From Minisyncoccota bacterium (GTDB lineage Bacteria; Patescibacteriota; Minisyncoccia; Phycocordibacterales; Phycocordibacteraceae): 64,000 bases of DNA. The DNA lies in contig JBBAAE010000001.1 of assembly GCA_041658485.1 (NCBI GenBank), forward strand, positions 11,889 to 75,888, in the 5' to 3' direction. Position numbers and translations under genes: made by a program. This document shows positions 1,879 to 58,626 of this stretch, piece after piece; the stretch's first letter is position 1, and each line of letters begins with the position of its first letter. The notes below the pieces were generated by a model. That model had not been told where the DNA came from, did no database searches, and saw only the letters and a list, made by a program, of their open reading frames with translations.

Positions 1879-1885
1879 ATGTATT

Positions 1886-3358: not shown

Positions 3359-3363
3359 AAAAA

Positions 3364-4011: not shown

Positions 4012-4012
4012 A

Positions 4013-6963: not shown

Positions 6964-7481
6964 TACTTGCGGGTAGTGGTAACTATACTCAAGAGCCCTC
7001 TTAAGACATCCTCTGGTGTTGGCGGATCACCGGGAATTCGAGCATCAACTGGAATAACATTTTCTACTGCCCCCACTCCCGCATAGGAATCCTTCCAAAT
7101 TCCGCCCGTGCATGCTCCGTCACCGAGAGCAATAACAATTTTTGGCTCTGGCGTCATCTCGTAGGCGGTCTTCAGTGCATGCTCCATGTTGCGAGTAACA
7201 GGACCTGAAACAGTGATTACGTCAGCATGACGGGGAGATGCCACAAATGAGATTCCGAAACGCTCAATGTCGTACAAGGCGTTACCCAGAGCAGTTAGTT
7301 CATACTCTTCACCGTTCGTGGAACCCGCATCAACATGCCGTATGCGTAGCGTTCGACCTCCATATAAAGTATGAATAGCCCTCTTCAGATTCTCACCGAT
7401 CTCCTCAACGTGAGTTGGAATTTGAGGACATTTTTCAGTTCTCTTCCCTGTGGTAATTATTTTAGAAAGAAGACGCAACAT
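6963..7481 (-). CDS. NuoB / hydrogenase small-subunit-like protein with degenerate Fe-S ligands
   Basis: 172 aa with NuoB/HycG-like blocks. GSTNGEEYEL replaces GSCNGC..E (both Cys lost). IPGDPP replaces the conserved IPGCPP (Cys to Asp). Only ALGDGACTGG keeps one Cys, so 1 of 4 canonical cluster ligands remains. Confidence 0.75.
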   Translation of the reverse strand: MLRLLSKIITTGKRTEKCPQIPTHVEEIGENLKRAIHTLYGGRTLRIRHVDAGSTNGEEYELTALGNALYDIERFGISFVASPRHADVITVSGPVTRNMEHALKTAYEMTPEPKIVIALGDGACTGGIWKDSYAGVGAVENVIPVDARIPGDPPTPEDVLRGLLSIVTTTRK

Positions 7482-12740: not shown

Positions 12741-12851
12741 GCTTTAGTGGCTAGGGTTTAGCGTTTAGGGGAGAACGAATTGAAAAATCCTGATCCCTAC
12801 GAATCCGACGAAGCATCGTCTAAACCCTGACCACTAAACGCTAGCCCCTAG
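12741..12851. repeat. Pair of inverted G-triplet repeat units (GGGTTTAGCGTTTAGGG family) flanking a 47-nt spacer
   Basis: Left unit ctttagtggctagggtttagcgtttagggg (12741-12770); right unit ctaaaccctgaccactaaacgctagcccctagc (12819-12851). Lies between the TraD-like stop and the ndk start. Confidence 0.6.
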
Positions 12852-15733
12852 CTCTTCTGGTTCTCTCGCATCTGATTATACTTCTGGTGAATATCAGCCT
12901 CCACAGCTTCGCGGGCTCGACCGTAGCGTTGATACGAAATCTGTTTCAATGCATCAATGTTCAAGAAGTCGCCAGGGGTAAACGGGATAGTCTCAATAGT
13001 AAAACCAGGGGTAGGCTTTCCTCCAGCAAGGAGCTTTAAATATGAATGGAAGTTGTCAATTTTTAGGAAGTCGGAAACCTCAAAGTTTGGAAATTGTTTC
13101 GCAATATACTCAGCATCATCGGGACCTACACGAAACACTGCCATCGTACCAACGTTACCAAAGACCGCTTCTTTAATTTTTGGAAGGAGCTGAGAAACAT
13201 ACTGGTGCGCCATAGTCATAGAGAGACGGAATTTTCGTGCTTCTGAGAGAATTGTTGAAATAGTATCGGTCGTGATGTTCTGGAACTCGTCAATGTAGAG
13301 ATAGAAGTTTGGAGGATTCAAATGCAAATACTCAGTACGTGCAAGTGCAGTCATCATTATCTTTCCAACAATCACAAGTCCAATCAAGTTTGCATTTACG
13401 TCCCCCAGTCGGCCTTTGGACAAGTTCACAAGAAGAATCTTCTTGTTGTCCATAATATCCTTGAAATTAAAGGCCGATCGTTGCTGACCTATGATGGGGC
13501 GCATAATTTCATTTGCGATGAAGATATCGAATTTTGAGGTGATGTACGGAACCACGTTACGCAAATCTCCTTCTCCCCGCACATTTTCTGCAATGTCTTC
13601 CCAGAAGTGCGTTACCACGGGATTTTTACAGCGCGACAATTTCAATGCGCGGAACTCATCGTCAGCGAGTACTCGCGAAATATCCATGAGTGTCGAGCCA
13701 GTATCAGGATCTTCCAAAACAAGCATCGTGGCATTACGAAAATACTGCTCGAAAATAGGGCCGAACGCTTCTGGTACATCACCATATAATTTCTTGAAAA
13801 TCTTAAACATCTCGTCCACCACGAATGTTTTTTGTTCAGGGAAGCGTGGATCATACTCAAGCATATTGAGCCCCATTGGCCTTGCGGTATATGCAGGATC
13901 AAAATAAATGAGGTCGTCAATGCGATCTTTAGGAATACGGGAAAGAATCTCCAATACATCCACACCGTGTGGGTCAATAAAACACACCCCTTCCCCATTC
14001 TCAATGTCCTGAATAATCATATTCTTCAGGAAGTTCGTCTTACCAGTACCCGTTTGTCCAATGGTATACATGTGGCGCAGGCGATCATCTGGAGTGAAAT
14101 GAATTGGCGTTGCAATATTTGAGTAACGATTAATGCCGATGACAATGCCTTTCTCAGGAAGCCCTGGTGGTGCAGGAGCAAGCTTAGCGCTTGCAGTTTT
14201 GGCTTCACGAGATGCTGTACCTCCTGCAATAGTGAGATGAAAAATAGTTGAGAGCTCTGCCAAATTCATCGGCATGAGTGGAATCTTATGCATCAAAGGT
14301 GTTGGCGCAGCCTTGCGTGTCCATTCAAGCCACAGCTGATAGAAAAATCCTTCGTGTGCTTGACGGTCAAACATACGGAAAATGAACAAGCGGAGAAACT
14401 CCCGCAACTCCTTTCTACCTTTTATATGCTTAAAACGAAGGCGATTCGCTTTTGCATCTTCATACTGCCCAAAGGTATTTTCAAGTTCCGTCAAAATTGC
14501 CATTGCCCTCTCTTTGGTGCGAGCAGAGGCAACAATGCGTAAATTCACTCCCACAATGACACTCTTGAGCTTTTTTGACACTGCGTCAGCCGCAAAAGAA
14601 TCAATATTCTTACTATCATCCTTCTTTTTTTCTTCAGAGCTTTCCAAAAAACTAGTGAAGCCTTTGTTCAATCCCTGAAAAAATCGACGCATTGGTGAGT
14701 AATGCTCCATGTACATATTTTTTCGAAATATGTCATTCGCAGAACCCTTACCTTTATTAAGTTCGTCTAAAACATAGCGGATACGCTTAGAGTGATAGTC
14801 TCCTGCTGGTGCAACGGTAATTTGAAGCGCAGCCCCTTCACCTTCTTTAGTGATTTTTGAAAGTGCTGCGAGCGTCACATTCATAGGGTCGTGACTAAAC
14901 TCTTCTGATGTCTTTAAAGGAATTGGTGGCGGGCGCTGATAGTAAGCAGACGCTGCAACAGTCACACCAAATTGGTTAAAAAGATTGTAGTCATCTTTTT
15001 TTTCAACAATACGTGCGCGAGGAAACATGGCAAAAATCTGCTTTTCAAACGTTTCCCGTTTTGCTCGAGGAACTGACAAATAAAAGACCGCTTCCTCTTT
15101 AGTGTGCGAAACAGCAATTTCCATTGTGAAATGCTGAAGATGAATCTTTTTGCGCTTGTGCCAATCCTTCAGGAAAATTGTATCGGGGAGAGCAACAAAA
15201 GGAATCATGCTCAAATAAAACTGCTCCATCTGCATGCAAACATCCTTAAGAGACCCCCCTGGTTTCCCTGGCGCAGCTTCAGGTACGGCTATATCCAAGA
15301 GAACAAAATCAAGAGCTACAGCGAGTGGGTCATTAGCACTCAGCCCTGGGATTGGATGACCAGCTGTCCGGTATTGCACAAGCAGGCGATGGAAATCATC
15401 TTCAAGGTGGGGATTATCAATGCGATCGAGCTCCCTCATGACAGCCTTGAATCCTTGGGTATGCAAAATACCCAACAACTCCTCCATGTCTTTGTCGTTC
15501 GAGTCAGGTGTAAGTTCAAGAATGATGCCTTGCTTCTGCTCTTGCTCTACCCCCTCTGGTGCCTCCGAAAGTGTAGGGAGAACAGACGCTTCGACAGGTA
15601 AGGCCGGATCCCCTCGATGTCCCCTTCCCCCTCCACCCGAACGCGCGGTCTCACGCAACTTCGTCAGTTGATGCTCAGGCGAAAGTTTCGCTGCTTTTGT
15701 ATCAATTCCTTTATTAGGATTAAATCCTGGCAT
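12848..15733 (-). CDS. TraD/VirD4/TrwB-like (FtsK-HerA superfamily) P-loop ATPase with a large N-terminal domain of unknown function
   Basis: 961 aa. Walker A YTIGQTGTGKTNFLKNM, Walker B LYIDEFQNI, then ARKFRLSMTMAHQYVSQL typical of type IV secretion coupling / DNA-translocation ATPases. The N-terminal ~500 aa have no recognisable similarity and no N-terminal transmembrane helices. Confidence 0.6.
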   Translation of the reverse strand: MPGFNPNKGIDTKAAKLSPEHQLTKLRETARSGGGGRGHRGDPALPVEASVLPTLSEAPEGVEQEQKQGIILELTPDSNDKDMEELLGILHTQGFKAVMRELDRIDNPHLEDDFHRLLVQYRTAGHPIPGLSANDPLAVALDFVLLDIAVPEAAPGKPGGSLKDVCMQMEQFYLSMIPFVALPDTIFLKDWHKRKKIHLQHFTMEIAVSHTKEEAVFYLSVPRAKRETFEKQIFAMFPRARIVEKKDDYNLFNQFGVTVAASAYYQRPPPIPLKTSEEFSHDPMNVTLAALSKITKEGEGAALQITVAPAGDYHSKRIRYVLDELNKGKGSANDIFRKNMYMEHYSPMRRFFQGLNKGFTSFLESSEEKKKDDSKNIDSFAADAVSKKLKSVIVGVNLRIVASARTKERAMAILTELENTFGQYEDAKANRLRFKHIKGRKELREFLRLFIFRMFDRQAHEGFFYQLWLEWTRKAAPTPLMHKIPLMPMNLAELSTIFHLTIAGGTASREAKTASAKLAPAPPGLPEKGIVIGINRYSNIATPIHFTPDDRLRHMYTIGQTGTGKTNFLKNMIIQDIENGEGVCFIDPHGVDVLEILSRIPKDRIDDLIYFDPAYTARPMGLNMLEYDPRFPEQKTFVVDEMFKIFKKLYGDVPEAFGPIFEQYFRNATMLVLEDPDTGSTLMDISRVLADDEFRALKLSRCKNPVVTHFWEDIAENVRGEGDLRNVVPYITSKFDIFIANEIMRPIIGQQRSAFNFKDIMDNKKILLVNLSKGRLGDVNANLIGLVIVGKIMMTALARTEYLHLNPPNFYLYIDEFQNITTDTISTILSEARKFRLSMTMAHQYVSQLLPKIKEAVFGNVGTMAVFRVGPDDAEYIAKQFPNFEVSDFLKIDNFHSYLKLLAGGKPTPGFTIETIPFTPGDFLNIDALKQISYQRYGRAREAVEADIHQKYNQMRENQKS

Positions 15734-23223: not shown

Positions 23224-23634
23224 TTATGCTCCACCTCCTACAATAGGCTTCCCGGCATCTGGTCCTCCAGTAAAATCTTTAAGATCGCCAGACCTTACAG
23301 TAACAAACAATTCCCCACCCATTGGTACCTCTCTATCAGTTTCAATGAGAATACCGTAACTAACACCTTTCAGTTGACTCAAAACAGCCTCAAGGGCCTT
23401 GTAACCTGCCGTCTCTCGTATTTGACTTGGAGAAAGACCAAGAAATGCTAATTCTCTCCGGGCAAGAACTACACCGCTCTTCTCCCCTGTGGCAGCAAGA
23501 GCTTTTTCGACTTGTGTTCCCAAACGAGAAGCCATGAGCTTCAAAGAACGATCGATAGTATCGAGTGCCCCACGAAGCACAGGGGCCTCTAATATTTTCC
23601 TCCCATTGTCAGGAGATGAAATAGCTTCACCCAT
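23224..23634 (-). CDS. Hypothetical protein inserted between rpsN and rplE
   Basis: The track ORF runs 23224-23712; the likely start is the internal Met (MGEAISS...), since the upstream 26 codons look non-coding. About 136 aa, no family recognised, a Gly-rich C-terminus GGPDAGKPIVGGGA. Confidence 0.4.
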   Translation of the reverse strand: MGEAISSPDNGRKILEAPVLRGALDTIDRSLKLMASRLGTQVEKALAATGEKSGVVLARRELAFLGLSPSQIRETAGYKALEAVLSQLKGVSYGILIETDREVPMGGELFVTVRSGDLKDFTGGPDAGKPIVGGGA

Positions 23635-23882
23635 ATATTTACAGTATGTGTGAAATGAAAAATCTGTCAATAAATTAACAAAAACAAACAAGAAAGTGCC
23701 CTCCTTATCCAATTATCCAAATTTTTAAGTTCCAATTATTTGTTGGGCTTCGGAACAAGAAAAGGTCCCGGAAGGGGCTTACCAGTAAGTCCAAGACCTT
23801 TGAGTAATGCCGCTACATCTTCTTTTGGAGGAACAGGAAAAGAAGTCGAGCTTTCGTACGCCATAAGAACTAAAAAACAAAC

Positions 23883-27080: not shown

Positions 27081-27440
27081 TTACTTCTTTGCGGGAGCCT
27101 TAGCTTTACCGTCGGCTGGAGACTTAGCTGCTTGGGCTGCTGCAATTTCAGATTCTTTCTTCTTCTGCTCAAGTTCTTTCTGCATCTTACCTCCGTGACG
27201 AGTAAATTTCGTTGTTGATGAAAATTCACCAAGACGATGCCCTACCATTTCTTCTGTAACAAATACCTCAGGGAAATCCTTTCCGTTATGGACAAGAAAA
27301 ACAAAACCAACCATTTCAGGACTGATTTCAGATGCACGAGCCCATGTTTTAATAGGCGCCGTTGTTGCAGGCTTCTTGCCTTCAATCTTCTTTAGAAGCT
27401 TGTGGGCGACATACGGACCTTTTTTAAGTGAACGAGACAT
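27081..27440 (-). CDS. rpsS: 30S ribosomal protein S19 with Lys/Ala-rich C-terminal tail
   Basis: [20 protein letters not shown]...[26 protein letters not shown]. Confidence 0.9.
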
Positions 27441-27538
27441 TGTTGTAGTTTTGACCCAAATGAAGTGCGCACTAAGAAAAATGCGCCCTTACGAGCTTTG
27501 GGCATACTATCCCAATCACCCACTCACTGTCAACATCA

Positions 27539-27587: not shown

Positions 27588-28286
27588 TTACAAAATAATA
27601 ATGCCTTCAAGCTCCTCAGCTAAAAGTTTTTTGTTGGTTGTTTTAACAAAATCAGCGTAATTACTTTTTGCTGTTATGGCAAACTGCCCTGTAATGATTT
27701 CGGGCACTATGAGTCCTCCCCATCGGTTTGCATCAGTAAAATCTTGGAGCGACGACCAAGGATATTCAAATTCCTTTCCTGACCATTCTCGTGTATCACG
27801 AGGGTTTCTATGAATGTAGGCGGATGTGTAGAGAAGTTGAGAGTCTGTCTTTACATGCACCGCTTTATACGGACCCTGAAATACATGCCCAGTGGCGTCA
27901 TATTTAACATTATAATATTTTGTATATCCATCAGACACACGTTGCATATAGCGTGCGATTCCACCTTCAATAGTTTCTTTGACCAGTAAGTGAAAATGGT
28001 TGGACATCAGACAAAAACAAACCACTTCTACAAAACGACTCTCGATAATGGACTCGATATCTTCGTTAGGAACAGAAAAACCAATATCCGGAACAAAACT
28101 TTCCGTAATGCGATGTATATTTTTAAACTCGTGCGGGGATTGGAGAAACAGCACATTAAAAAGGAATCGCCGCCAATCGTTTTTTTCTTTAAAAACCGTT
28201 TGTCGGTGAGCTCCGCGATTAAAAATATGGTAGTACTCCCCTGGAGCAATTCCTTCTCGCGATTTTAGTAATACTTTAGGCATCAA
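27588..28286 (-). CDS. IS200/IS605-family (REP-associated tyrosine transposase, RAYT-like) Y1 transposase
   Basis: 232 aa. EYYHIFNRGAHRQTVF opening block, CLMSNHFHLLVKE (HuH motif), GHVFQGPYKAVHV with the catalytic Tyr region. This is the typical Y1_Tnp / RAYT layout. Confidence 0.75.
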   Translation of the reverse strand: MMPKVLLKSREGIAPGEYYHIFNRGAHRQTVFKEKNDWRRFLFNVLFLQSPHEFKNIHRITESFVPDIGFSVPNEDIESIIESRFVEVVCFCLMSNHFHLLVKETIEGGIARYMQRVSDGYTKYYNVKYDATGHVFQGPYKAVHVKTDSQLLYTSAYIHRNPRDTREWSGKEFEYPWSSLQDFTDANRWGGLIVPEIITGQFAITAKSNYADFVKTTNKKLLAEELEGIIIL

Positions 28287-28360: not shown

Positions 28361-31300
28361 TTAAAACTCGTCGAAGCGCGGAGTAACACCTATGGTCACT
28401 GACTTTGAACTCGGAACCCCACCGGTCAAACAATTCATTGTGTATGTACTTTGTTGATTTATGATCACAGATTGTGCGCCTGAAAAAGCTGTTGAAGAAA
28501 GCCCAGGGCCAGAAATCGAACAAGAGTCAGGAGTGCCCACCACTCCCCATGACACCGTTGCAGGGTCGCCTTGGCGAACAGTAACGGCTGGGCTAATGCT
28601 GAGAGCAATATCAGCAGGGTTTACAGTAACTGTTGCACTTGAAGATGCACTTCTCGTACCGTTTGTACAAGTGATGCCGTAGGTTGTAGTAACTGGAGGG
28701 GAAACAGTAACCGAACCAACGGTTGCACTCCCTGTTGGGAAGTTAGTTCCTGTACAAGAAGTGGCGTAAGAAGATGTCCAGTCAATGCGTGGAGAAGTTA
28801 CACCTTTAATTATTACGTTTGGTGTAACAGTAATGAGCACCGTGGGAGTGTTCTGTATAGTTCCCGCTGCACATGTCGCAGTAACTGACCCTGCACCTGA
28901 GGTCACAATAACTGAAGCCGATTTCGTACCGGCAGTAGCGTATGTTTTCGAGACAGTTACACCTGTGCCGAGAAGTCCGTCAGTGCCACTCCAGACATAT
29001 GTATATGAACCTACACCACCAGAAGGTGTGACGGTCCACGTTAATGAATCTCCCACATACCCAGTACTTGGTGATGGAGAACATGATGCTGTCACTGCAC
29101 CCGGGTTTACAGTTAATGATGTCCATACACTACAGTTATCAAGCTCATTGGATTCGTTCACTTCATTGAGTGGTGTATCAGCACAAAAACGCATCTGGTA
29201 CGAACCCGGTGAAGGAAATGTGTAGCTTCCTGTTTGAGTACCACTGCCCCCAGCTACAATCGATATTCGACTTAAAGCAATTTTAATTGACGTATTGGCT
29301 TCCGCAAAATTAATAAAGAAACTAAAGATGCGACTCCAAATAGAGTCTGACTTGGTGAGATAATTATTGAGACAAGCACTGTCCGAAGTGAGACACACAT
29401 ACATCCTTGAACCAAAAACTGGAGTCGCTGCCCCACCACGATTAGTAACGCCAGCGGTAAATGTGGTATTTACTCCCGCAGTTACACTGGCAGGAGAGAG
29501 AGACCCTGTAGTTAAATCCGCCAAAGAAACACCAACTACAACAGAGTTTGAACAACTCGCCGTAACTGATGCATTCGATGCAGTTGCCATACCTGCCAAA
29601 TAATTATGTCTCGTTGTACTACCGCTCGTTGAGGTTTTCGAGGCAAGAGAAGCATTCGAATATGCTTCGTAGCGATAGTAGGTATTAACAGGTTGCCCAG
29701 CTGAATTCAAAGTCTCTCGCACATCAACACTACAGCAACCGCCTGCTGGGGTTATACCTGCGCACACTCCTGCCATAGAGCTAGTGTTGAGAGTAAATCC
29801 AACACCATCCTCGGTAGTACCATAACTACCTACTTTCGTACCTCCAGAACAATGCTTTTCCCCTTGAAGCGTAACAGAAGTTGCGCCGGAAGGGCTAGTG
29901 ATAGTGATTGAGGCTGTTTTTGTACCGACAGTTGTATATGTTTTTGAAATAGATGCAACGGCACCCGAGAGACTATCAGTACCACTCCATGAATACGTGT
30001 ATGAACCGGCTCCACCCCATGCAGAGGCAGTCCAAGTTACAGGACTACCGGTGTATACACTTGTTGGCGATACTGAACATGACCCAGAAAGAGCGCCGGA
30101 GGAGGTTGAATTTACTTGAACATTTGCGGTAGCGAAAGCGGTCTGAGGAGTCACGGCAGGAGAGGCGCCGACACATGAATAGATATCAGTATTGATGCTG
30201 CATGCACTGATGGTGTTCACCTTACACGTTGGGATACTACAAGTCTTTCCTGTTGGATTCGAAGGGCAAGTTGGTACGCTTGAATATGCCTTGTTTGGAT
30301 CTGTGAGCGGGCAAGCAAAATCACTTATATCAGACTCTGAATATTGCCATGTACCTGACGATACTGCGCTAGCTCCTGTACAGGTGATGGAGTAGTTTGT
30401 ACTAGCACTTAACGCTCCGGTAGAAATAGAGCCTGATGTATTCCCGCCAGTTTCAAATCCACTACCAACACAAGAAACTGCATTAGTTGAGGACCATGTG
30501 AGAGTAGCGGAAGATCCAGAATTCAAACTTGTTGGAGTTGCAGAGAGTGAAACCGTTGGCGAAGGGATTGAACTTACAGTGACCGTTTGGGATGCCGCCG
30601 CAGAACCGCCAGCGCCAGTACATGAGACAAGATAACTTGTTGTTTGCGATGGGATAACTGTTACAGAGCCTGCAGTTGCCGACGCTGTCGAAAAATTGGT
30701 TCCTGTACAGGAAGTTGCGTTCGTTGAACTCCAAGTAATAACTGACGAGGCACCTGCGACAAGAGAGGTTGGATTTGCAGAGAGCGTTGCCGTTGGCGCT
30801 GCAGGAAGATTCACGGTCACCGTCCGAGATGCAGACGCAGAACCACCAGCGCCAGTACATGAAACGAGGTAACTGGTTGTTTGTGACGGGACCACCGTTA
30901 CGGAACCTGCAGTTGCTGATGCTGTCGAAAAGTTAGTGCCCGTGCAGGATGTTGCGTTAGTTGAACTCCAAGTTATTACCGATGATGCACCTAATATAAA
31001 GGAGGTTGGATTTGCAGAGAGTGAGGCAGTTGGGGCAACAACAGGAGCACTGACAGTCACCGTTGCGGAAGAAGAAATTGTCTGGGCACCATCGGTACAG
31101 GTAATTAAGTAGGCTACTGAAGAAGATGGTGAGACAATAAGCGAGCCTGAAGTAGCGCCACTAGTTGAAAAATTAGTGCCCGTACATGAGGTTACATAGT
31201 CCGAACTCCATGTTAAAAGAGACGAACCTCCACTAGTTATGGAAGCAGGTGTCGCAATAATTCCAACATACGGCGCTGTTGGCTCTTCGATACAACCCTC

Positions 31301-31597
31301 ATCCATGTCGCCAACAGTTGCGGTCTGATAGGCACTTTGCACTGTATAACTATCTCCACCATACACTGCATAAAAGGCCGCGGCACCTCCACTGCCCGGG
31401 GGGAATGGATTAGTTACTACAGTGTAGGAGTATTCCCATATCGAACCACTACACCCTCCGACACCACCTCCTCCACCATCCATGTTTGGTGCAGCGTATA
31501 CCGATTGAGGAATTATACTGAGTACCGCAACTACAAAGACAGCAACCACAAAAAAGCTTTTAAAAGTGCGGGCAACAAACTGGCGGAAGGCTATCAT
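28361..31597 (-). CDS. Giant secreted Thr/Ser-rich repeat-domain protein (surface or S-layer-like candidate)
   Basis: 1078 aa. Signal peptide MIAFRQFVARTFKSFFVVAVFVVAVLSIIPQSVYA, followed by poly-Gly. At least six copies of a ~75-90-aa module (xTPTSLxxGxSSxxTWSSTNATSCTGTNFSTxxATxGSxTVxPSQTTSYxVxCTGAGGS). A Cys-rich central module (GTWQYSESDISDFACP...CKVNT...YSC). PKD-like GSYTYSWSGTD modules. Many N-x-S/T sequons. C-terminal tail ...PRFDEF. Confidence 0.8.
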   Translation of the reverse strand: MIAFRQFVARTFKSFFVVAVFVVAVLSIIPQSVYAAPNMDGGGGGVGGCSGSIWEYSYTVVTNPFPPGSGGAAAFYAVYGGDSYTVQSAYQTATVGDMDEGCIEEPTAPYVGIIATPASITSGGSSLLTWSSDYVTSCTGTNFSTSGATSGSLIVSPSSSVAYLITCTDGAQTISSSATVTVSAPVVAPTASLSANPTSFILGASSVITWSSTNATSCTGTNFSTASATAGSVTVVPSQTTSYLVSCTGAGGSASASRTVTVNLPAAPTATLSANPTSLVAGASSVITWSSTNATSCTGTNFSTASATAGSVTVIPSQTTSYLVSCTGAGGSAAASQTVTVSSIPSPTVSLSATPTSLNSGSSATLTWSSTNAVSCVGSGFETGGNTSGSISTGALSASTNYSITCTGASAVSSGTWQYSESDISDFACPLTDPNKAYSSVPTCPSNPTGKTCSIPTCKVNTISACSINTDIYSCVGASPAVTPQTAFATANVQVNSTSSGALSGSCSVSPTSVYTGSPVTWTASAWGGAGSYTYSWSGTDSLSGAVASISKTYTTVGTKTASITITSPSGATSVTLQGEKHCSGGTKVGSYGTTEDGVGFTLNTSSMAGVCAGITPAGGCCSVDVRETLNSAGQPVNTYYRYEAYSNASLASKTSTSGSTTRHNYLAGMATASNASVTASCSNSVVVGVSLADLTTGSLSPASVTAGVNTTFTAGVTNRGGAATPVFGSRMYVCLTSDSACLNNYLTKSDSIWSRIFSFFINFAEANTSIKIALSRISIVAGGSGTQTGSYTFPSPGSYQMRFCADTPLNEVNESNELDNCSVWTSLTVNPGAVTASCSPSPSTGYVGDSLTWTVTPSGGVGSYTYVWSGTDGLLGTGVTVSKTYATAGTKSASVIVTSGAGSVTATCAAGTIQNTPTVLITVTPNVIIKGVTSPRIDWTSSYATSCTGTNFPTGSATVGSVTVSPPVTTTYGITCTNGTRSASSSATVTVNPADIALSISPAVTVRQGDPATVSWGVVGTPDSCSISGPGLSSTAFSGAQSVIINQQSTYTMNCLTGGVPSSKSVTIGVTPRFDEF
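30590..31130. repeat. Near-identical in-frame tandem DNA repeats (~270 bp, about 90% identity) inside the giant gene
   Basis: Two successive ~90-aa modules (...SLSANPTSFILGASSVITWSSTNATSCTGTNFSTASATAGSVTVVPSQTTSYLVSCTGAGGSASASRTVTV / ...TLSANPTSLVAGASSVITWSSTNATSCTGTNFSTASATAGSVTVIPSQTTSYLVSCTGAGGSAAASQTVTV) encoded by nearly identical DNA. Confidence 0.6.
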
Positions 31598-31654
31598 TCC
31601 ATCTATTGTACAGGGAATTCATACTTGCTGTTAAGAGAAATTTGTGAGGGGTGG

Positions 31655-31688
31655 AGTAATAAAAACTCTCCAGGTAATGGGGAGTTTT
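31655..31688. terminator. Bidirectional rho-independent terminator between the two giant genes
   Basis: aaaaACTCTCCaggtaatGGGGAGTttttttatttc. Confidence 0.5.
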
Positions 31689-31847
31689 TTATTTCAGCTC
31701 CCTGATTTGCGTTGCTTGCCCCATCATTAGAATTTGGCGTTACTCCTTATAGTGAAGTATTAGACGTTTTAGACACCGACCACACGGTCGTGAATCTGTG
31801 ATTTGCAGTATCCCGTACATCGAAACAATCTATTACGCACCTGTGTA

Positions 31848-34325
31848 TCAAAACTCTTCGTATGCTGGTAGCAGTTTGACTGTTATTGATTTTGAAGTGG
31901 TCCCTCCACCTGTCGTACATGAGAACGTATAGGTACTTTCTTGACCTATAATGACACTTTGCGAACCTGAAAAAGAACCTGATGAGAGCCCTGGGCCACT
32001 CATGAGACACGAATCAGGACTTCCTGATACTGACCAGTTAATAATTACCGAATCATTACGACGAACTGAAGTGTTTGGGGATGCAGTAAGCACTAGATCC
32101 GCTACATATACTGTAACGACCGCGCTCGAGTAAGCACTTTTTGATGCGTTCGTGCACGTAAGGTTATAGGTAGTGGTGTTAGTTGGTGTTACCGATAGAG
32201 CGCCAGACGTTTGGCCTCCTGTTGCAAAATTAGTGCTTGTGCACGATGTTGCGTTTGTCGAAGACCACGTAAGTTGCGACGCATTTTGCCCGCGAATAAT
32301 TGAGCTCGGGGTCGCACTTAAAAGTGCCGTAGGAGAAGCTGAGATTGAGGTTGAATTGCTACATGCTTGAGTAACAGACTGTGTGCCTGAAGCAACAATC
32401 ACAGAGCCGGCTTTGGTTCCCACTGTTGTGTATTGCTTCACAACCGATTGCGTTGTTCCTGATAAACCATCTGTACCACTCCACGAATACGTATAGGAAC
32501 CGGTGCCCCCCGCAGGAGACGCTGTCCACGTTATGTTGTCATTTGTATACCCCGAGGTGGGAGCAACAGCGCAGGAGGTATTAAGTGATGGAATTGCGAC
32601 GGTCACAGCAGTCCACGCACCACAATTATTTGTTTCATTGGACTCGTTGATAACGCCGGAACCCGTAGATGAGTTTTTGTCAGCACATGCACGCACGTAC
32701 CACGTACCTGCCGAAGGGAACGCGTACGAAAAAGTAGTTGCCTCAGAACTATTCGTCGAAATGTTTGGTGACATACCAGTGCCAATATCTTCTGTATTCG
32801 CACCACTTGAAGATGTAGCTCGCTGAAAAAGATTGATGAACTCTCCTCCTGTCGCAGGGTTACCTGCATTCGTGATTGTTGCGGAAAATGTTTTTGCGAC
32901 GTTAGTAATTGCGGAGGTTGGTGAAATGGCGCTCGCACTAAGATCGGACAACACTACACTCACTGCAACAGAATTTGAACAACTCACTCCCGCCGAGTTA
33001 CCGCCCGAAGTAATTGTCACTGCACCACTCTTCGTACCAGTGGTTGAGTATGTTTTGGATACCGATGCACCTGTGCCAGAAAGACTATCGGTACCACTCC
33101 ACGAATACGTATACGAACCGGTGCCACCCGATGCAGATGCAATCCAAGTAACCATCTCTTCCGTATACACACTTGTGGGAGACACTGCACACGATGCCGT
33201 AAGGGGCGTACTTGAAACAGTAACGTACGCACTGCCCGATACACTTGGCGGAGGCGATGTTACTTGGCACGAATACAAGTCCGTAGTGATACCACATCCG
33301 GGACCGATTGTGTTTACTTTACACGTTGAAGGAGGTGAGGTGCATGATTTACCTTGAGGACTCGCTGGGCAATCTGGTACAGAACTATAAACATTGTTGC
33401 TGGATGATACAGGGCACGATAGATCCGAGTAATCACTTTGATAGTATTGCCATGTTCCAGTGCCACTCCCCGAAGAACCCGTGCATGTAAGCGTGTAATT
33501 TGTGCTAGCGTTTGGCGTAATGGTGATCGAGCCCGATGTGGCGCCAGCGGTATCAAATTGAGTGCTCGAGCAATACGAAGTATTGCTCGAAGTCCACGAA
33601 AGCGTTGTACTCCCTCCCGCGGTAACCGAGGAGGGAGACGCGGTCAACAATATACTTGGCGACGAACTTGGGGGCGTTACCGTAAGAGTCGCCGAGCCTT
33701 GCGCTGTACCTCCAGCACCAGTACAACTTACTGAATACGTTGTAGTTTGCGACGGTGAAACAGAAACTGTACCAGAGAGTGCTCCGCCCGTACTGAATCC
33801 CGTTCCCGTACATGATGTTGCATTTGTGGAACTCCACGTGAGTGCAGATGAGTACCCTGCCGAAATGGACGTGGGCGCTAGAGATATTGACGTGGTTGGT
33901 GCGGGAGAAGCGTTGATATAGGTAAGTGCATATGTCTTAGTTGCACTTGCCGTGCCGGCGCCACTATACATTTTATAGAGTATGTTCCAACTGCCGCTGT
34001 TCGACGTTAATTCTCCTTGAATACAGTACGAGCCTGGAGTGTTATAGCCACTTGGGATGAGAGTGCCATCTATAAACCCCCACGCGAGAATGCTCCACGA
34101 CGGTGCAGACGGTGGCGACAAGTCCCCCTCACCACCGAGATTCGCCACAAACGCCCCCGTACATTTTGTATTTGCACTGGTAACGGCGCCAGAAGAAGTT
34201 GGTGGATTGGGGTAGGCGTACGCCTCCGCAAAAGAGACAGAAACGCTTCCCACAAAAACGGCCGCGATTAAAAAACTTCCGAATGTTTTCAAAACAAAAG
34301 ATGTAATCGGTGTGAGCGAGTTCAT
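31848..34325 (-). CDS. Giant secreted Thr/Ser-rich repeat-domain protein, paralog of 28361-31597
   Basis: 825 aa. Signal peptide ...VSVSFAEA. Same module types as its neighbour (SLAPTSISAGYSSALTWSSTNATSCTGTGFSTGG...; central GTWQYYQSDYSDLSCP...CKVNTIG...YSC; GSYTYSWSGTDSLSGT). C-terminal tail ...LLPAYEEF. Confidence 0.8.
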   Translation of the reverse strand: MNSLTPITSFVLKTFGSFLIAAVFVGSVSVSFAEAYAYPNPPTSSGAVTSANTKCTGAFVANLGGEGDLSPPSAPSWSILAWGFIDGTLIPSGYNTPGSYCIQGELTSNSGSWNILYKMYSGAGTASATKTYALTYINASPAPTTSISLAPTSISAGYSSALTWSSTNATSCTGTGFSTGGALSGTVSVSPSQTTTYSVSCTGAGGTAQGSATLTVTPPSSSPSILLTASPSSVTAGGSTTLSWTSSNTSYCSSTQFDTAGATSGSITITPNASTNYTLTCTGSSGSGTGTWQYYQSDYSDLSCPVSSSNNVYSSVPDCPASPQGKSCTSPPSTCKVNTIGPGCGITTDLYSCQVTSPPPSVSGSAYVTVSSTPLTASCAVSPTSVYTEEMVTWIASASGGTGSYTYSWSGTDSLSGTGASVSKTYSTTGTKSGAVTITSGGNSAGVSCSNSVAVSVVLSDLSASAISPTSAITNVAKTFSATITNAGNPATGGEFINLFQRATSSSGANTEDIGTGMSPNISTNSSEATTFSYAFPSAGTWYVRACADKNSSTGSGVINESNETNNCGAWTAVTVAIPSLNTSCAVAPTSGYTNDNITWTASPAGGTGSYTYSWSGTDGLSGTTQSVVKQYTTVGTKAGSVIVASGTQSVTQACSNSTSISASPTALLSATPSSIIRGQNASQLTWSSTNATSCTSTNFATGGQTSGALSVTPTNTTTYNLTCTNASKSAYSSAVVTVYVADLVLTASPNTSVRRNDSVIINWSVSGSPDSCLMSGPGLSSGSFSGSQSVIIGQESTYTFSCTTGGGTTSKSITVKLLPAYEEF

Positions 34326-34336
34326 ATCATTACATG

Positions 34337-34999
34337 TTATTTGATGTCTGATTTGGAATATGTAACAGAACCCAAATGTCGTACGCCAGTTCGAATATCA
34401 TACAGCTCAAAGGAATTTGGACGACCGGTGTGCATGACGATGGTCGCGGGTGACGCGAAACCGACGGCAATGAGGTAGGTTGGCAAATTCGGGATTTTGA
34501 ATGAACCACGATACGAGACGCTCGCGCCACCGTCATACACCTTGAACACATCAAATTGGTTGGTGACCTGATTGAACAATACCGCAGCACTTCCGTCAGG
34601 AGCAACGGCACCAACATCAGGAGTAATGCCTTCTTGCGCAATGAGCACAAGTTCACTTTTTGCTTTCGGATTACGCCAGACTAGCCCTTTCTCGGTAACT
34701 ACAAGAATCATACCGCTCGGAAGTGTAACGTTATTTGAGACTGAGAGAGTTTGTTGTGGTGCCGTGGCAGTATGCACTTCATTCGCAGAATTCAAGGCAT
34801 ACCACCGATAAGTATCAGTTTCATACATTGAAAATACTTGATCTGCCATTCGCTCGTTCGCCTCTTTTGGTATCCATTCAGAAAAAAATGTACGTAGAAT
34901 AGGGACCGCATACAACAGACCGCTCAATGCACCCAAAATGAGCGCAATAGAAAGTGTGATACGCATTGGTCGAGAGAGTCTCTGTACTATCTGACTCAT
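34337..34999 (-). CDS. Hypothetical membrane-anchored protein
   Basis: 220 aa, one N-terminal transmembrane helix (ITLSIALILGALSGLLYAV), no family recognised. First gene of the accessory island downstream of rplB. Confidence 0.45.
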   Translation of the reverse strand: MSQIVQRLSRPMRITLSIALILGALSGLLYAVPILRTFFSEWIPKEANERMADQVFSMYETDTYRWYALNSANEVHTATAPQQTLSVSNNVTLPSGMILVVTEKGLVWRNPKAKSELVLIAQEGITPDVGAVAPDGSAAVLFNQVTNQFDVFKVYDGGASVSYRGSFKIPNLPTYLIAVGFASPATIVMHTGRPNSFELYDIRTGVRHLGSVTYSKSDIK

Positions 35000-35039: not shown

Positions 35040-35072
35040 AAAACACCCCGCATGATGCAGGGTGTTGGTGGA
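35040..35072 (-). terminator. Rho-independent terminator immediately after rplB
   Basis: Minus-strand reading: CACCCTGCATCATGCGGGGTGttttttt. Related in sequence to the hairpin at 37779-37812. Confidence 0.55.
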
Positions 35073-35074
35073 TA

Positions 35075-35938
35075 TTACGCGCCTTTCGTTCTTTTTTTCC
35101 CGACACGACGACGAGAAACAATGAAGGGATTCGAGTATTTCTTTGGAGTTCGTGTCTTTTGTCCCTTTCCAGATGGCTTACCCCACATGGTGCGTTGTCT
35201 GCGGTGACCACGGCCTTGACGACCTTCACCTCCTCCATGTGGATGGTCAACTGGGTTCATTGCAGTACCACGAACCGTTGGGCGAATACCCATGTGTCGT
35301 GCACGACCTGCTTTACCAATGATAACGAGATGGTGCGCATCGTTTGAAACTTCACCAATCGATGCCCATGCGGTATCAACAACTTTTCGAACTTCAGTCG
35401 AAGGGAGTTTTATTTGAGCGTAGCCAGCATCGAGCGCGATCAACTCAGCGTGGTTACCTGCACTTCGTGCCATTTTTGCACCACCGTTTGCATGTACTTC
35501 AATGTTGTAAATGAATGTGCCGATTGGAATGTTCTTCAAAGGAAGACGGTTACCGGGAGTGATAGGCGCAGTCTCTGAAGTAATAACCTTATCGCCGACT
35601 TTCAAAGATTTAGGTGCAAGGATGTATCGGCGCTCACCGTCAACATCTACAATACGAGCAATGAAACCTGTACGAGTAGGATCGTATTCAATGTGCTCAA
35701 CTTTGCCTGGGATATTCTTCTTAGCGAACATGAAGTCAACCACACGCATCTGTTGCTTGTGTCCACCTCCTTGGTGACGTGTGGTGATGCGACCGAGTGA
35801 GTTTCTACCTGCGTGATTTTTCTTTCCTTTCGTCAAAGACTTCAAGGGCTTCCCGGTCGTCAAAACATCGCGGTAACGAATCACGCTCATGTGGCGAGTA
35901 GATGCGGTTCGTGCTTTGTAATTTCGTGTAGTAGACAT
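35075..35938 (-). CDS. rplB: 50S ribosomal protein L2
   Basis: GRNSLGRITTRHQGGGHKQQMRVVDF...GRARHMGIRPTVRGTAMNPVDHPHGGGEG. Confidence 0.93.
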   Translation of the reverse strand: MSTTRNYKARTASTRHMSVIRYRDVLTTGKPLKSLTKGKKNHAGRNSLGRITTRHQGGGHKQQMRVVDFMFAKKNIPGKVEHIEYDPTRTGFIARIVDVDGERRYILAPKSLKVGDKVITSETAPITPGNRLPLKNIPIGTFIYNIEVHANGGAKMARSAGNHAELIALDAGYAQIKLPSTEVRKVVDTAWASIGEVSNDAHHLVIIGKAGRARHMGIRPTVRGTAMNPVDHPHGGGEGRQGRGHRRQRTMWGKPSGKGQKTRTPKKYSNPFIVSRRRVGKKRTKGA

Positions 35939-47385: not shown

Positions 47386-47961
47386 ATGTACACTGCAAAA
47401 AAATTCACCTTCGGAAACTTGGATGGTATTTCACCCAAGCAACTTGAAGTACACATCAAACTCTACGAAGGGTATGTAAAATTCCTGAACACTCTTGAGG
47501 AAACTGTTGCGGATCTAAAAAAAGACTCTGAAAAAAATGCCTACGCCCTCGCTGAAGTTACGCGTCGCATCGGCTTTGAATGGAATGGTATGCGCATGCA
47601 TGAACACTACTTCGCACAGTGGGAAGGAACACCTTCTCCTATTGAAGGAGCACTTAGAGATGCACTGGCAGCGCAATACGGCAGTTACGAAAAATGGGAG
47701 AACGAATTCAAAGCAGTCGGAATGATGCGTGGCATTGGTTGGGCAATACTTTCATACGATGCCACAACTAAGAATTTTCTTACTCACTTCGTTGCCGACC
47801 ACGAACTAGGACAACTCAACGACACAAAAACAATCCTTGCTCTCGACATGTGGGAACACGCCTATATGGTGGATTACATTCCTGCAGACAAAAAACAATA
47901 TATAGAAGCGTTTTTTAAGAATTTGAATGGTGCTTCGATCCAAGTGCGATTTCCTTCCTGA
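47386..47961 (+). CDS. Fe/Mn-type superoxide dismutase family protein (divergent)
   Basis: C-terminal DMWEHAYMVDY (Asp and His ligands), WNGMRMHEHYF, N-terminal EVHIKLYEGYV. Several second-sphere His residues are substituted. Confidence 0.7.
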   Translation: MYTAKKFTFGNLDGISPKQLEVHIKLYEGYVKFLNTLEETVADLKKDSEKNAYALAEVTRRIGFEWNGMRMHEHYFAQWEGTPSPIEGALRDALAAQYGSYEKWENEFKAVGMMRGIGWAILSYDATTKNFLTHFVADHELGQLNDTKTILALDMWEHAYMVDYIPADKKQYIEAFFKNLNGASIQVRFPS

Positions 47962-58562: not shown

Positions 58563-58626
58563 TTTTTCAGTATAACGTCAAAAAATAATTCCTAGCGTGC
58601 TAATTGGTACACCATGTGTACCTAAG

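Follow-up and report, generated by a model that had tools for sequence, protein, structure and literature searches.

What are the two large proteins encoded in the midst of the ribosomal-protein genes of an ultra-small Paceibacteria (CPR) bacterium, and what is the role of the short acidic-aromatic peptide with which both of them end? We addressed this question in a window of 64,000 nucleotides, which is the whole stretch of DNA that was analysed. A preliminary description of the two proteins, here called A and B, considered them candidate S-layer or adhesin proteins, possibly glycosylated and placed in a highly transcribed locus; its observations were partly confirmed and its interpretation was partly supported by our analysis. 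The features of the locus are listed in Table 1.

Table 1. Features of the locus encoding A and B, with positions in the window.
Feature	Position	Strand	Details
rplB (L2)	35075-35938	minus	upstream flank of the insertion; Pfam Ribosomal_L2_N, Ribosomal_L2_C
Terminator-like hairpin	35042-35066	minus	11-bp stem, then T run; begins 9 nt past the rplB stop; consensus match only
Gene for 220-aa protein	34337-34999	minus	ORF; one N-terminal membrane helix; stop 11 nt upstream of the B start
Protein B	31848-34325	minus	825 aa; ends PAYEEF; Pfam CARDB, PKD_4
Order of parts in B	31848-34325	minus	signal peptide, N-terminal domain (YAYPNPPT...), 2 Ig modules, 6-Cys module, PKD, CARDB, PKD, Ig module, C-terminal Ig domain, tail PAYEEF
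Six-cysteine module of B	33258-33437	minus	aa 297-356; Cys 304, 319, 328, 335, 344, 353
PKD-CARDB-PKD block of B	32352-33212	minus	aa 372-658; Pfam CARDB aa 461-568, PKD_4 aa 386-446; GSYTYSWSGTD at aa 403, 609
C-terminal unit of B	31851-32105	minus	aa 741-825; 7-strand Ig-like domain, 2 Cys, plus tail
Tail of B, LPAYEEF-COOH	31851-31871	minus	coil past the last strand; pLDDT drops to ~62-67
Promoter-like site TTAACA-18-TACAAT	31605-31634	minus	ends 8 nt before the ATG of A; consensus match only
Protein A	28361-31597	minus	1078 aa; ends PRFDEF; Pfam PKD_4, CARDB; module HMM
Order of parts in A	28361-31597	minus	signal peptide, oligo-Gly, 4 Ig modules, 6-Cys module, PKD, Cys-containing insert, CARDB, PKD, Ig module, C-terminal Ig domain, tail PRFDEF
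Tandemly duplicated 79-aa Ig module of A	30566-31039	minus	copies at aa 187-265 and aa 266-344; 237-bp period; TRF and direct-repeat families
Six-cysteine module of A	30158-30337	minus	aa 421-480; Cys 429, 444, 453, 458, 466, 475
PKD-insert-CARDB-PKD block of A	28862-30115	minus	aa 495-912; Pfam CARDB aa 693-822, PKD_4 aa 862-908; GSYTY at aa 531, 863
C-terminal unit of A	28364-28621	minus	aa 993-1078; includes tail TPRFDEF, 28364-28384
Y1 gene (IS200-like / REP-associated tyrosine transposase-like)	27588-28286	minus	between A and rpsS; Pfam Y1_Tnp E = 1.4e-8; NCBIfam REP_Tyr_transpos under cutoff
rpsS (S19)	27081-27440	minus	downstream flank of the insertion; Pfam Ribosomal_S19

Composition and modular architecture

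As first described, A and B are Ser/Thr-rich paralogues: Ser and Thr make up 33.0% of A and 35.8% of B, and BLASTP aligns their C-terminal 404 aa at 46% identity (E = 3e-83) and their N-terminal parts at 37% (E = 2e-36). The signal peptides assigned earlier are also borne out in a reading by eye of the N-termini, which resemble Sec signals, with K/R and about 20 hydrophobic residues followed by VYA-A in A and AEA-Y in B; residues 1-40 of B have pLDDT values below 50 in the AF2 model. Cysteines are even in number in both proteins (32 in A, 22 in B), and B is identical to the NCBI entry 'CARDB domain-containing protein [Candidatus Paceibacterota bacterium]'. Abundant N-x-S/T sequons had been taken as a hint of glycosylation, but their counts (16 in A, 21 in B) are not clearly enriched over composition-preserving shuffles (14.2 +/- 3.1 and 14.2 +/- 2.9, respectively); sequon abundance largely follows the Ser/Thr-rich composition and thus gives no evidence of glycosylation.

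The shared modular architecture was recovered with a module HMM, which finds two-Cys Ig modules of ~79-80 aa (TWSS...C...YxxxC), six in A and four in B, the terminal one included. The Cys-rich linker of the preliminary description corresponds to a module with six cysteines in each protein, which in B is predicted to be partly beta (AF2, pLDDT ~81-88). Its PKD-like modules, with the motif GSYTYxWSGTD, match Pfam PKD_4, in A above the cutoff (E = 4.4e-9, 36.7 bits, cutoff 27) and in B with a score under the cutoff (E = 3.5e-4, 21 bits), and in both proteins a CARDB domain that it had overlooked lies between two PKD modules (33.3 and 31.9 bits, cutoff 22.7). Pfam matches in A and B are limited to CARDB and PKD_4, and none is to a characterised enzyme family. 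The full-length model of B is an all-beta chain of beta-sandwiches with a pLDDT of 85.7 and a pTM of 0.41, the latter as expected for beads on a string, and its best structural matches in Foldseek are Ig-repeat fibres, for example the GhpA grappling hook and mastigoneme. Pfam, AF2 and Foldseek support the reading of A and B as non-enzymatic proteins of cell-surface type, presumably secreted, made of Ig-like, PKD and CARDB beta-sandwich modules.

It had also been proposed that A is a phase- or length-variable surface antigen, recombining through near-identical 270-bp tandem repeats. The repeat exists, but its period is 237 bp and its copies have diverged: TRF reports 1.8 copies with 82% matches (30591-31021), and the copies in codon register (30803-31039 vs 30566-30802) share 77% of their nucleotides and 86% of their residues, the longest identical run being 20 nt. 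Codon differences between them, 33 synonymous against 11 non-synonymous, point to an old duplication under purifying selection. One copy is missing in all six A orthologues, so that A is one Ig module longer than each of them, and the orthologues of B vary from 825 to 1047 aa, as a length-variable antigen would; however, simple-sequence repeats of note are absent, the sole other TRF row being a 15-nt array, and with copies far from near-identical we consider such an antigen extremely unlikely.

The C-terminal unit and its family

The ends PRFDEF and PAYEEF, correctly given in the preliminary description, belong to a larger terminal unit, for which Pfam and NCBIfam hold no model: an Ig-like domain of ~80 aa with two cysteines, whose last strand reads ...V-x-V-N-V-[IV], followed by Pro and a five-residue peptide, with P-x-[F/Y]-x-E-F-COOH as the consensus protein end. 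Since the tail is modelled as a coil beyond the last strand and with lower pLDDT, it is predicted to be exposed. In the six A orthologues the tail is 100% identical and the last Ig module plus the C-terminal domain 91-99% identical, against merely 59-70% in the N-terminal region. Glu at -2 is invariant in our alignment A1, which was itself selected on the tail pattern. In a less biased count, the Ig module is terminal in 90 of the best 120 homologues; Glu occupies position -2 in 84 of these 90, and 71 have EF as their last two residues, with Pro at -6 in 61 of the 71; the distance from the last Cys to the chain end is 18-24 residues in the 84 proteins with Glu(-2) and from 16 to 33 in the six exceptions.

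A search of the GTDB species representatives with the strict DNA pattern VNV[IV]Px[FY]xEF-stop gave 70 matches, where ~4 would be expected from an information-content estimate, and 67 of them were judged by eye to be true family members. Nearly all of the 67 are labelled Paceibacterota, Parcubacteria, Patescibacteria group, Kaiserbacteria, Nomurabacteria, 'uncultured Candidatus Saccharibacteria' or unclassified bacterium. Complete ORFs of the family encode 223-1205 aa with a hydrophobic N-terminus, and genomes have several tail genes, which often stand in tandem. Ig modules that lack the tail are widespread, with 19,577 matching cluster representatives at E <= 1e-3, and only three of the 147 top-scoring Ig-module sequences have a similar ending. 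We are dealing with a large family that is defined by its C-terminal unit rather than by its passenger domains and that appears confined to this lineage. The recurrence of the tail at the exact C-terminus of many predicted secreted proteins, seen among homologues and GTDB representatives alike, means that it behaves like a sorting or retention signal, as had been suggested for the shared (D/E)EF end.

Genomic setting and interpretation

Genes of the A/B type lie between rplB and rpsS in the window and in three relatives, that is, inside a ribosomal-protein operon, and the Y1 gene has an equivalent position in loci L001, L002 and L003. Elsewhere, 16 of 55 tail genes precede rpmE by 2-83 nt in the same orientation, directly upstream of rpmE-prfA-rpsB-tsf; among the loci examined, the RF1 gene is present in 28, the S2 gene in 24 and the EF-Ts gene in 20. 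The neighbouring genes for the ribosome and translation point to expression that is constitutive and high, in line with the highly transcribed locus proposed earlier, the level being read from gene position only. The terminator-like hairpin after rplB and the promoter-like sites suggest separate transcription units.

The 220-aa protein has no Pfam or NCBIfam match. Its gene and the homologues of that gene accompany B-type genes in all cases observed: homologues stand directly upstream of them in L001, L004 and L039, and five of five database homologues are on contigs of B or B orthologues. By hhalign, it is weakly linked to membrane-anchored PD40-like neighbours of other tail genes (82% and 74% probability). 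Such a PD40-like gene is the upstream neighbour of 12 of the 41 tail genes with an identifiable neighbour, at a gap of -49 to +6 nt in 10 of the 12, and genes for membrane-anchored TPR proteins are directly upstream of five tail genes; in other cases the upstream partner belongs to one of two other unknown families or is absent.

We consider the tail a probable signal for retention at the cell surface, of a kind not described before. That A and B are Sec-exported fibrillar surface proteins, retained by their C-terminal sorting unit and with the N-terminus distal, is a reading to which we give about an even chance. Each protein would be flexible and consist of some 9-12 small beta-sandwich domains in a row. 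Once exported, it would be sorted or kept at the surface by its C-terminal unit: the acidic-aromatic end of the chain, exposed and with a free carboxylate, would bind a putative envelope receptor without a covalent bond. The conserved end would thus be held at the cell, while the variable N-terminal end would lie distally and serve to adhere or to form a coat. Among local receptor candidates, the best would be the small membrane-anchored proteins encoded directly upstream, here the product of the 220-aa ORF and elsewhere PD40-like or TPR proteins; given that no upstream partner is universal, none of them can be the general receptor.

It is important to consider that a very short invariant tail may have another function, in folding, in contacts within a lattice or in processing by proteases. 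We regard it as unlikely that A and B are S-layer proteins proper, self-assembled into the two-dimensional lattice of ultra-small CPR cells with lattice or anchoring contacts made by the C-terminal domain and tail. Their size, Ser/Thr richness, few charged residues and multiple Ig-like domains would suit this role, as would the conserved place beside translation genes in many Paceibacteria, a position unusual among accessory adhesins and suited to a core protein of the envelope made in abundance; against it are the several paralogues per genome, from 223 to 1205 aa, the low pTM of a flexible string of beads, and the many cysteines, a high content of which is atypical of S-layer proteins. S-layers have been reported in Patescibacteria (supplement, bioRxiv 10.1101/2024.05.28.596244), but that preprint assigns them to proteins of 1131-1274 aa with six Ig-like domains or of 643-727 aa with three, a difference judged by description only.

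Covalent processing, in which a transpeptidase or protease would cut at or near the Pro and link the protein either with peptidoglycan or with a further subunit, seems to us very unlikely, even with Pro at -6 highly conserved and Glu at -2 near-invariant in the terminal-module homologues. By extension, head-to-tail polymers might form if the nucleophile were the oligo-Gly found just after the signal peptide in A and in other members: a run of at least four consecutive Gly occurs within the first 120 residues of 16 of 81 tail proteins, in about 11 of them a few residues past the predicted signal-peptidase site, and N-terminal oligoglycine serves as a nucleophile for sortases. However, oligo-Gly is missing in B and most family members and may be a mere flexible linker, A and B have no LPXTG-like motif, membrane helix or basic tail, and the examined neighbourhoods contain no conserved candidate enzyme. 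It is also highly improbable that the tail has no role in sorting and either caps the last Ig domain structurally or marks the protein for an extracytoplasmic quality-control protease of the PDZ type. The tail is always fused to the same Ig-like domain, and PDZ proteases such as DegS and Prc are known to bind hydrophobic residues at the C-terminus; nevertheless, AF2 places it as a lower-confidence coil outside the sandwich, internal Ig modules of the same fold need no tail, and it is hard to see why conserved proteins encoded beside translation genes would carry a tag for degradation.

Comparison with known systems

Surface retention through the C-terminal unit has partial parallels. The LPXTG-anchored Ig-repeat adhesins of Gram-positive bacteria (MSCRAMM, sortase substrates) share with A and B a signal peptide, tandem Ig-like repeats, a variable distal N-terminus and a conserved extreme C-terminal signal common to otherwise different surface proteins, whereas A and B lack the LPXTG motif, hydrophobic helix and basic tail and have a free ...E-F end. 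In the T9SS of Bacteroidota, diverse secreted cargo carries a conserved C-terminal sorting domain (CTD) that is an Ig-like beta-sandwich, comparable in kind to the seven-strand domain predicted here. In contrast to that cargo, A and B match no Pfam or NCBIfam T9SS model, the defining element of their family is the terminal peptide, and CPR bacteria are not known to have an outer membrane. A likeness to the sulfur-carrier protein SoxY was discarded, with 11% identity, no GGCGG carrier motif and unrelated biology; it is unspecific, as hundreds of other Ig-like domains score almost equally.

C-terminal peptides are recognised by receptors in several systems, namely PTS1 (SKL) by the TPR protein PEX5, the EEVD of Hsp70/90 by the TPR carboxylate clamp, and PDZ ligands. 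As may putatively hold for the tail, by analogy, a few residues and a free carboxylate are recognised there and the exact C-terminus is obligatory; the TPR receptors of PTS1 and EEVD recall the membrane-anchored TPR proteins noted above, although the setting of the tail is extracytoplasmic and bacterial.

Within the phylum, the predicted S-layer proteins of Patescibacteria resemble A and B in their signal peptides and multiple Ig-like domains (bioRxiv 10.1101/2024.05.28.596244). In the part of the preprint available, they have six (or three) larger Ig-like assembly domains, form hexagonal pyramids, and have homologues among the top five expressed signal-peptide genes of two of three Patescibacteria species in an earlier metatranscriptome; compared by description only, their domains look different, and that part of the text mentions no C-terminal tail. 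The Pam pili, reported mainly in Saccharimonadia and Microgenomatia, are built of two-domain pilins of 39-55 kDa in which a linker strand is donated to an incomplete C-terminal domain (bioRxiv 10.64898/2026.03.03.709456); by description, A and B are set apart from them by a terminal domain modelled as a complete sandwich and by a tail of 5-7 residues. What the Pam pilins have in common with A and B is that they are CPR-specific surface proteins with Ig-like domains, disulfides and export by Sec, and that genes for membrane-anchored helpers lie next to theirs (bioRxiv 10.64898/2026.03.03.709456).

Proteins A and B and their modular architecture

Both large open reading frames of the preliminary description, here called A and B, lie on the minus strand exactly where it had placed them, and their BLASTP similarity identifies them as paralogues: the C-terminal 404 residues are 46% identical (E = 3e-83) and the N-terminal parts 37% identical (E = 2e-36). 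The two proteins are rich in serine and threonine (33.0% of A and 35.8% of B), have few charged residues, and contain even totals of cysteine, 32 in A and 22 in B. B is identical to an NCBI entry, encoded on an 86.6-kb contig, named 'CARDB domain-containing protein [Candidatus Paceibacterota bacterium]'. Judged from the sequence by eye, both N-termini resemble Sec signal peptides, in which basic residues are followed by about 20 hydrophobic ones and a predicted cleavage after VYA (before A) in protein A and after AEA (before Y) in protein B; residues 1-40 of B have a pLDDT below 50 in the full-length AlphaFold2 model. The positions of the features discussed here are collected in the table.

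Positions of the genes, signals and sequence features discussed in the text (window coordinates unless a related locus is named)
Feature	Position	Strand	Remarks
A, 1078-aa ORF	28361-31597	-	ends PRFDEF
Oligo-Gly run of A (aa 41-48)	~31454-31477	-	also in homologues P0037, P0055, P0074, P0102 and others
B, 825-aa ORF	31848-34325	-	ends PAYEEF
220-aa ORF	34337-34999	-	one N-terminal membrane helix; ends 11 nt before B start
Y1 (IS200-like / REP-associated tyrosine transposase-like) gene	27588-28286	-	between large surface-protein gene and rpsS
Y1-like gene in relative L001	15903-16595		same site
Y1-like gene in relative L002	11219-11911		same site
Y1-like gene in relative L003	11103-11795		same site
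Strong terminator-like hairpin	35042-35066	-	11-bp stem and T run, directly after rplB; consensus match only
Promoter-like hexamers	31605-31634	-	8 nt before ATG of A; consensus match only
Promoter-like hexamers	27504-27533	-	upstream of rpsS; consensus match only
162-aa ORF	23224-23712	-	TTG start, no Pfam match; spc cluster, downstream of L5
L5-S14 gap in relative L002	15912-17739		shikimate kinase and threonine synthase genes
900-aa protein, distant B-type locus L004	3935-6637		adjoins B-type gene
223-aa tail protein, L004	6642-7313		anchor, one Ig module, terminal domain and tail
Complex-I-like / group-4 hydrogenase-like membrane cluster	340-7481	-	
T2SSE, T2SSF and ComEC genes, 961-aa protein	57348-60363, 47915-49324, 12848-15733	-	

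Our module HMM recognized a 79-80-aa 'TWSS..C...Y..xC' module six times in A and four times in B; the final copy forms the C-terminal domain of each protein. Both also contain one six-cysteine module and one PKD-CARDB-PKD block. The CARDB domain (PF07705), overlooked in the preliminary description, scores 33.3 bits in A and 31.9 bits in B against a Pfam gathering score of 22.7, which makes both proteins members of the family. PKD_4 (PF18911) reaches 36.7 bits over two stretches of A, against a cutoff of 27, so that A belongs to this family; B is to be considered borderline, because its 21 bits fall under the cutoff although the GSYTYSWSGTD motif is present twice. As the preliminary description had expected, the modules matched no enzyme family in Pfam or NCBIfam, and searches of A and B against the same collections returned no SLH domain, known sorting domain or S-layer family. 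AlphaFold2, with a 60-sequence alignment, modelled full-length B as all beta with a mean pLDDT of 85.7 and a pTM of 0.41, a model that fits independent domains arranged as beads on a string. The closest solved structures, at low TM-scores, are fibres of Ig repeats such as the GhpA grappling hook and an algal mastigoneme. In themselves, A and B are ordinary Ig-repeat surface proteins.

Conservation and distribution of the C-terminal tail

The Ig module is C-terminal in 90 of the 120 best homologues, and 71 of these 90 end in EF; in 13 others the final residue, after E, is I, L, V, Q or T. Glutamate therefore occupies position -2 in 84 of the 90, and in those 84 the chain ends 18-24 residues past the last cysteine of the module. 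The tail consensus is ...V-x-V-N-V-[IV]-P-x-[F/Y]-x-E-F, with proline at -6 in 61 of the 71 EF-ending homologues. In an alignment of the last 92 residues of 52 sequences, whose lowest pairwise identities to B are 22-30%, only one cysteine and the penultimate glutamate are invariant; because these sequences were chosen through the tail pattern, we prefer 84/90 as the less biased figure for the glutamate. In the AlphaFold2 model of the C-terminal 92 residues of B, a seven-strand sandwich (pLDDT 88.3) is followed by LPAYEEF as a lower-confidence coil beyond the final strand, just as in the full-length model.

A profile of the C-terminal domain matched 19,577 cluster representatives out of 1.84 billion searched, mostly internal Ig repeats in many kinds of proteins and many lineages, and only 3 of the 147 top-scoring matches had a tail-like end. 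Since the matches are mostly multi-copy internal Ig modules, this search is unfit for counting tail proteins; what it shows is a common Ig module, with the specificity lying in the tail. The figures that follow come from a hand-written, degenerate DNA pattern for V-N-V-[IV]-P-x-[F/Y]-x-E-F-stop, applied to one genome per GTDB species, which returned 70 matches at 61 loci where an information-content estimate predicts about four. By eye, 67 of the 70 are family members and three are chance matches. Their records carry the labels Paceibacterota, Parcubacteria, Patescibacteria group, Kaiserbacteria or Nomurabacteria, along with 'uncultured Candidatus Saccharibacteria' and unclassified bacterium; two contigs with family members are binned under Sulfuricellaceae and Bacillota, where we suspect mis-binning. 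All source-named homologues terminating in the module are from the Patescibacteria or Parcubacteria group, and some homologues from other phyla match through an internal Ig module only. The preliminary description had staked its reading on the tail recurring in other surface proteins, and this expectation is borne out by the 67 family members, mostly labelled Patescibacteria or unclassified.

Complete tail ORFs are 223-1205 aa long and have a hydrophobic N-terminus; the smallest combine a signal or anchor segment with a single Ig module and the tail-bearing terminal domain. There are 2-5 matches in several genomes and two matches at each of nine loci, mostly in separate neighbouring genes; within the window, A and B are the only carriers. 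Conservation is polarized along the orthologues of A: identity is 59-70% in the N-terminal region, 91-99% in the last Ig module and the terminal domain, and 100% in the tail, a pattern that would suit proteins held at the C-terminus and exposed at the N-terminus.

Some PKD-containing homologues without the EF tail (P0021, P0036, P0075 and P0079) share another C-terminal ending, ...[DE]-x-GW-[ML]-x-[IL]..., and one homologue, P0056, terminates in a membrane helix instead. Because of these two endings, the superfamily may have alternative C-terminal anchors.

Genomic setting and neighbouring genes

The gene order in the S10 operon of the window is L4, L23, L2, the 220-aa ORF, B, A, the Y1-transposase-like gene, S19, L22, S3 and L16. 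The arrangement is identical in Parcubacteria bacterium Greene0714_7, and at the same site two further genomes carry a single large tail-protein gene with a Y1-like gene. Because of the hairpin after rplB and the promoter-like sites, the inserted genes may be separate transcription units that split the S10 operon; transcription from the promoter-like site of A would leave the mRNA with almost no leader. Neither an Rfam scan nor a tRNA scan of the window gave a match. Among the 61 pattern loci, the commonest context is a tail gene that shares its strand with rpmE (L31) and lies 2-83 nt upstream of it (16 of 55 tail genes); genes for RF1, S2 and EF-Ts occur in 28, 24 and 20 of the loci examined, and the more distant B-type locus L004 has the same translation-gene context. 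These recurring S10-operon and rpmE-prfA-rpsB-tsf settings indicate that the group characteristically keeps these surface-protein genes in a lasting link with translation genes, and high expression of the tail genes would be expected from this. Highly expressed Ig/PKD proteins have been reported in a Paceibacteria metatranscriptome (mBio 2024, PMC10936435), and the L31-adjacent gene in one genome of that study did not resemble a family member.

In many Paceibacteria, among loci L005-L065 (e.g. L011, L020, L021, L043, L046 and L048), we also observed a conserved block in which one strand encodes a lytic transglycosylase-like protein (448 aa), a PD40-like membrane protein, the tail protein, rpmE, prfA, rpsB, tsf and a 137-aa membrane protein, and the other strand a 231-aa CxxC membrane protein, a GT2 glycosyltransferase and a putative pheS. 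A role as disulfide oxidoreductase for the Cys-rich surface proteins is possible for the CxxC protein. The Y1-like genes of all four genomes encode visibly very similar proteins of 230-232 aa that keep the HFH (HUH-type) and YIHRNP tyrosine motifs; the gene looks like a resident, domesticated one rather than a mobile element, and may serve as a date marker for the insertion into the S10 operon. Another ORF without a Pfam match, of 162 aa, lies in the spc cluster, and two metabolic genes occupy the L5-S14 gap of a relative (see table); in this lineage, ribosomal clusters seem open to insertion at more than one junction.

The genes directly upstream of the tail genes are of several kinds. Homologues of the 220-aa ORF directly precede B-type genes, defined by the N-terminal motif Y-x-Y-x-N-P-P-T, in L001, L004 and L039, and all five hits of this family in a database of 5.8 billion proteins are the window's own copy or lie on contigs with B orthologues. 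A membrane-anchored protein of about 320 aa precedes 12 of the 41 tail genes with an identifiable upstream neighbour, the gap being -49 to +6 nt in 10 of the 12. A similarly placed 320-aa protein at locus L032 matches the PD40 beta-propeller repeat (E = 2e-11), and the representative of the main ~320-aa cluster matches PD40 only at E = 0.05; hhalign relates the two PD40-like clusters to each other at 97.7% probability, and comparison of the 220-aa family with these clusters gives 82% and 74%, values that are only suggestive of a relationship. Other upstream neighbours are membrane-anchored TPR proteins (5) and two uncharacterised families (4 and 3). No partner family is universal among tail genes, and by eye we saw no covariation between tail variant and type of upstream partner. 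We consider these upstream neighbours candidate local receptors or assembly helpers. At L004, the 900-aa protein adjoining the B-type gene (cluster P0094) has an oligo-Gly N-terminus and Hint/PT-HINT-type Pfam hits, and may be toxin-like; a minimal tail protein is encoded at the same locus.

Elsewhere in the window, the complex-I-like cluster, which we did not expect in a small CPR genome, encodes a fused 30-kDa and 49-kDa subunit that weakly matches NiFe-hydrogenase, together with a pair of antiporter-like subunits, one NuoH-like subunit and one of 20 kDa. The T2SSE and T2SSF genes are probably type IV pilus pilB and pilC, and the 961-aa protein weakly matches the coupling-protein domains of type IV secretion (TrwB / TraG-D); T2SSE, T2SSF, ComEC and coupling-protein-like genes are typical surface and DNA-uptake equipment of CPR bacteria.

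Possible roles of the tail and comparison with known systems

The comparative evidence supports the view of the preliminary description that these are surface proteins with a C-terminal signal. We tentatively propose, with somewhat less than even confidence, that Paceibacteria possess a surface sorting or retention system of their own, in which an Ig-like domain followed by a free P-x-[F/Y]-x-E-F-COOH end, with no membrane helix, is the label read by envelope machinery; this label would mark the main surface proteins of these episymbiotic, ultra-small bacteria, and its genes are kept beside ribosomal and translation operons. The chain would be exported by Sec, lose its signal peptide, and fold outside the membrane into Ig-like domains containing disulfides. 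The terminal domain would then present the acidic-aromatic peptide with its free carboxylate to an envelope component, whose binding would keep the C-terminal end at the cell, so that an adhesin or coat fibre reaches outward with its variable N-terminal end. The sequences and models establish the fold class, the conservation and terminal position of the tail, its taxonomic restriction, the multiple copies in a genome, the polarity of conservation and the synteny; export, disulfides, retention, docking, the identity of the receptor and the level of expression are inferred.

Other readings of the same proteins have to be weighed. That A and B are S-layer lattice proteins, a class defined by self-assembly into a two-dimensional lattice and by being the most abundant protein of the envelope, is unlikely in our judgement; what favours it is circumstantial, namely the synteny of their family with translation genes. 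A recent preprint (bioRxiv 10.1101/2024.05.28.596244) predicts for Patescibacteria an S-layer protein with six or three Ig-like domains, in a family that includes A0A1G2EN61 and A0A0G1WWP5. The tail might also be a cleaved or covalent sorting signal, perhaps acting through an oligo-Gly stretch after the signal peptide: runs of 4-9 Gly occur within the first 120 residues of A and other members, in 16 of 81 tail proteins, and in about 11 of the 16 they lie a few residues past the predicted signal-peptidase site. These runs may be linkers or transpeptidase nucleophiles, and we regard the covalent reading as improbable. We would give a similarly low chance to the tail being a structural cap or a protease tag; if it were only a structural detail, the finding would be one of ordinary Ig-repeat adhesins.

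The phase- or length-variable antigen of the preliminary description is very improbable. The repeats in A, described as near-identical with a period of 270 bp, have a period of 237 bp, which is one module (TRF, 1.8 copies, 82% matches); when aligned codon by codon, the two copies show 77% DNA identity and 86% protein identity, and their longest identical run is 20 nt. They differ by 33 synonymous and 11 non-synonymous codons, and the copy at aa 187-265 is missing from all six orthologues of A. From these comparisons, the duplication appears to be lineage-specific but old, with both copies under purifying selection, and a poor substrate for frequent recombination; our repeat search found no significant simple-sequence repeat. 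Likewise, the abundance of N-x-S/T sequons that had suggested glycosylation is mostly accounted for by composition: A has 16 against 14.2 +/- 3.1 in shuffles, and B has 21 against 14.2 +/- 2.9, and glycosylation is not supported. Apart from the repeat and the sequons, what the preliminary description observed is largely correct.

CPR bacteria (Patescibacteria) account for a large part of bacterial diversity, and attachment to host cells is common among the members studied; little is known of how their cell surface is built and populated. If the proposed retention system exists, a simple rule that combines a signal peptide with a terminal Ig domain and the ending ...PxFxEF would yield a surface-proteome list of Paceibacteria from genomes alone, and thereby candidate host-attachment proteins. 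The six-residue peptide would be a concrete handle for fishing out the retention machinery. The conserved adjacency to rpmE-prfA-rpsB-tsf or the placement in the S10 operon is an unusual link between envelope and translation genes.

We compared the tail family with known systems. LPXTG-class substrates carry an LPXTG-like motif, then a hydrophobic helix and a basic tail; in A and B, which end in ...TPRFDEF and ...LPAYEEF, no hydrophobic segment follows the last Ig domain. Substrates of exosortases and archaeosortases (PEP-CTERM, PGF-CTERM, PEF-CTERM and similar) have a short motif, a transmembrane helix and an Arg-rich end; A and B have no C-terminal membrane helix and no match to any NCBIfam model at E <= 1. 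We also rejected type IX secretion cargo (only PKD_4 and CARDB match in Pfam and NCBIfam, and the organism is a Paceibacterota), an SLH-anchored S-layer protein (no SLH match in Pfam at E <= 0.1), and an outer-membrane beta-barrel with a C-terminal Phe beta-signal, given that the terminal domain is a seven-strand sandwich with the tail as coil outside it. The CPR-specific Pam pilus, which uses donor-strand exchange and is described with another architecture in other classes (bioRxiv 10.64898/2026.03.03.709456), is probably not the same system: Pam pilins of CPR bacteria have two domains, the C-terminal one an incomplete Ig-like domain completed by a donated linker strand, and their pam operon includes the PamC/PamD chaperones, whereas A and B have about 9-12 domains with the terminal one modelled as complete, so that the descriptions set them apart. 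Literature searches on C-terminal sorting signals of Patescibacteria, surface proteins of CPR bacteria, CARDB and S-layer proteins turned up no account of the tail. In function, the tail family is closest to LPXTG/sortase, the T9SS C-terminal domain and WxL-type non-covalent anchors, but it lacks the defining features of LPXTG and of the T9SS C-terminal domain wherever these were tested; together with its operon context, the conserved terminal unit looks like a version, so far undescribed, of a type of system that is already known.
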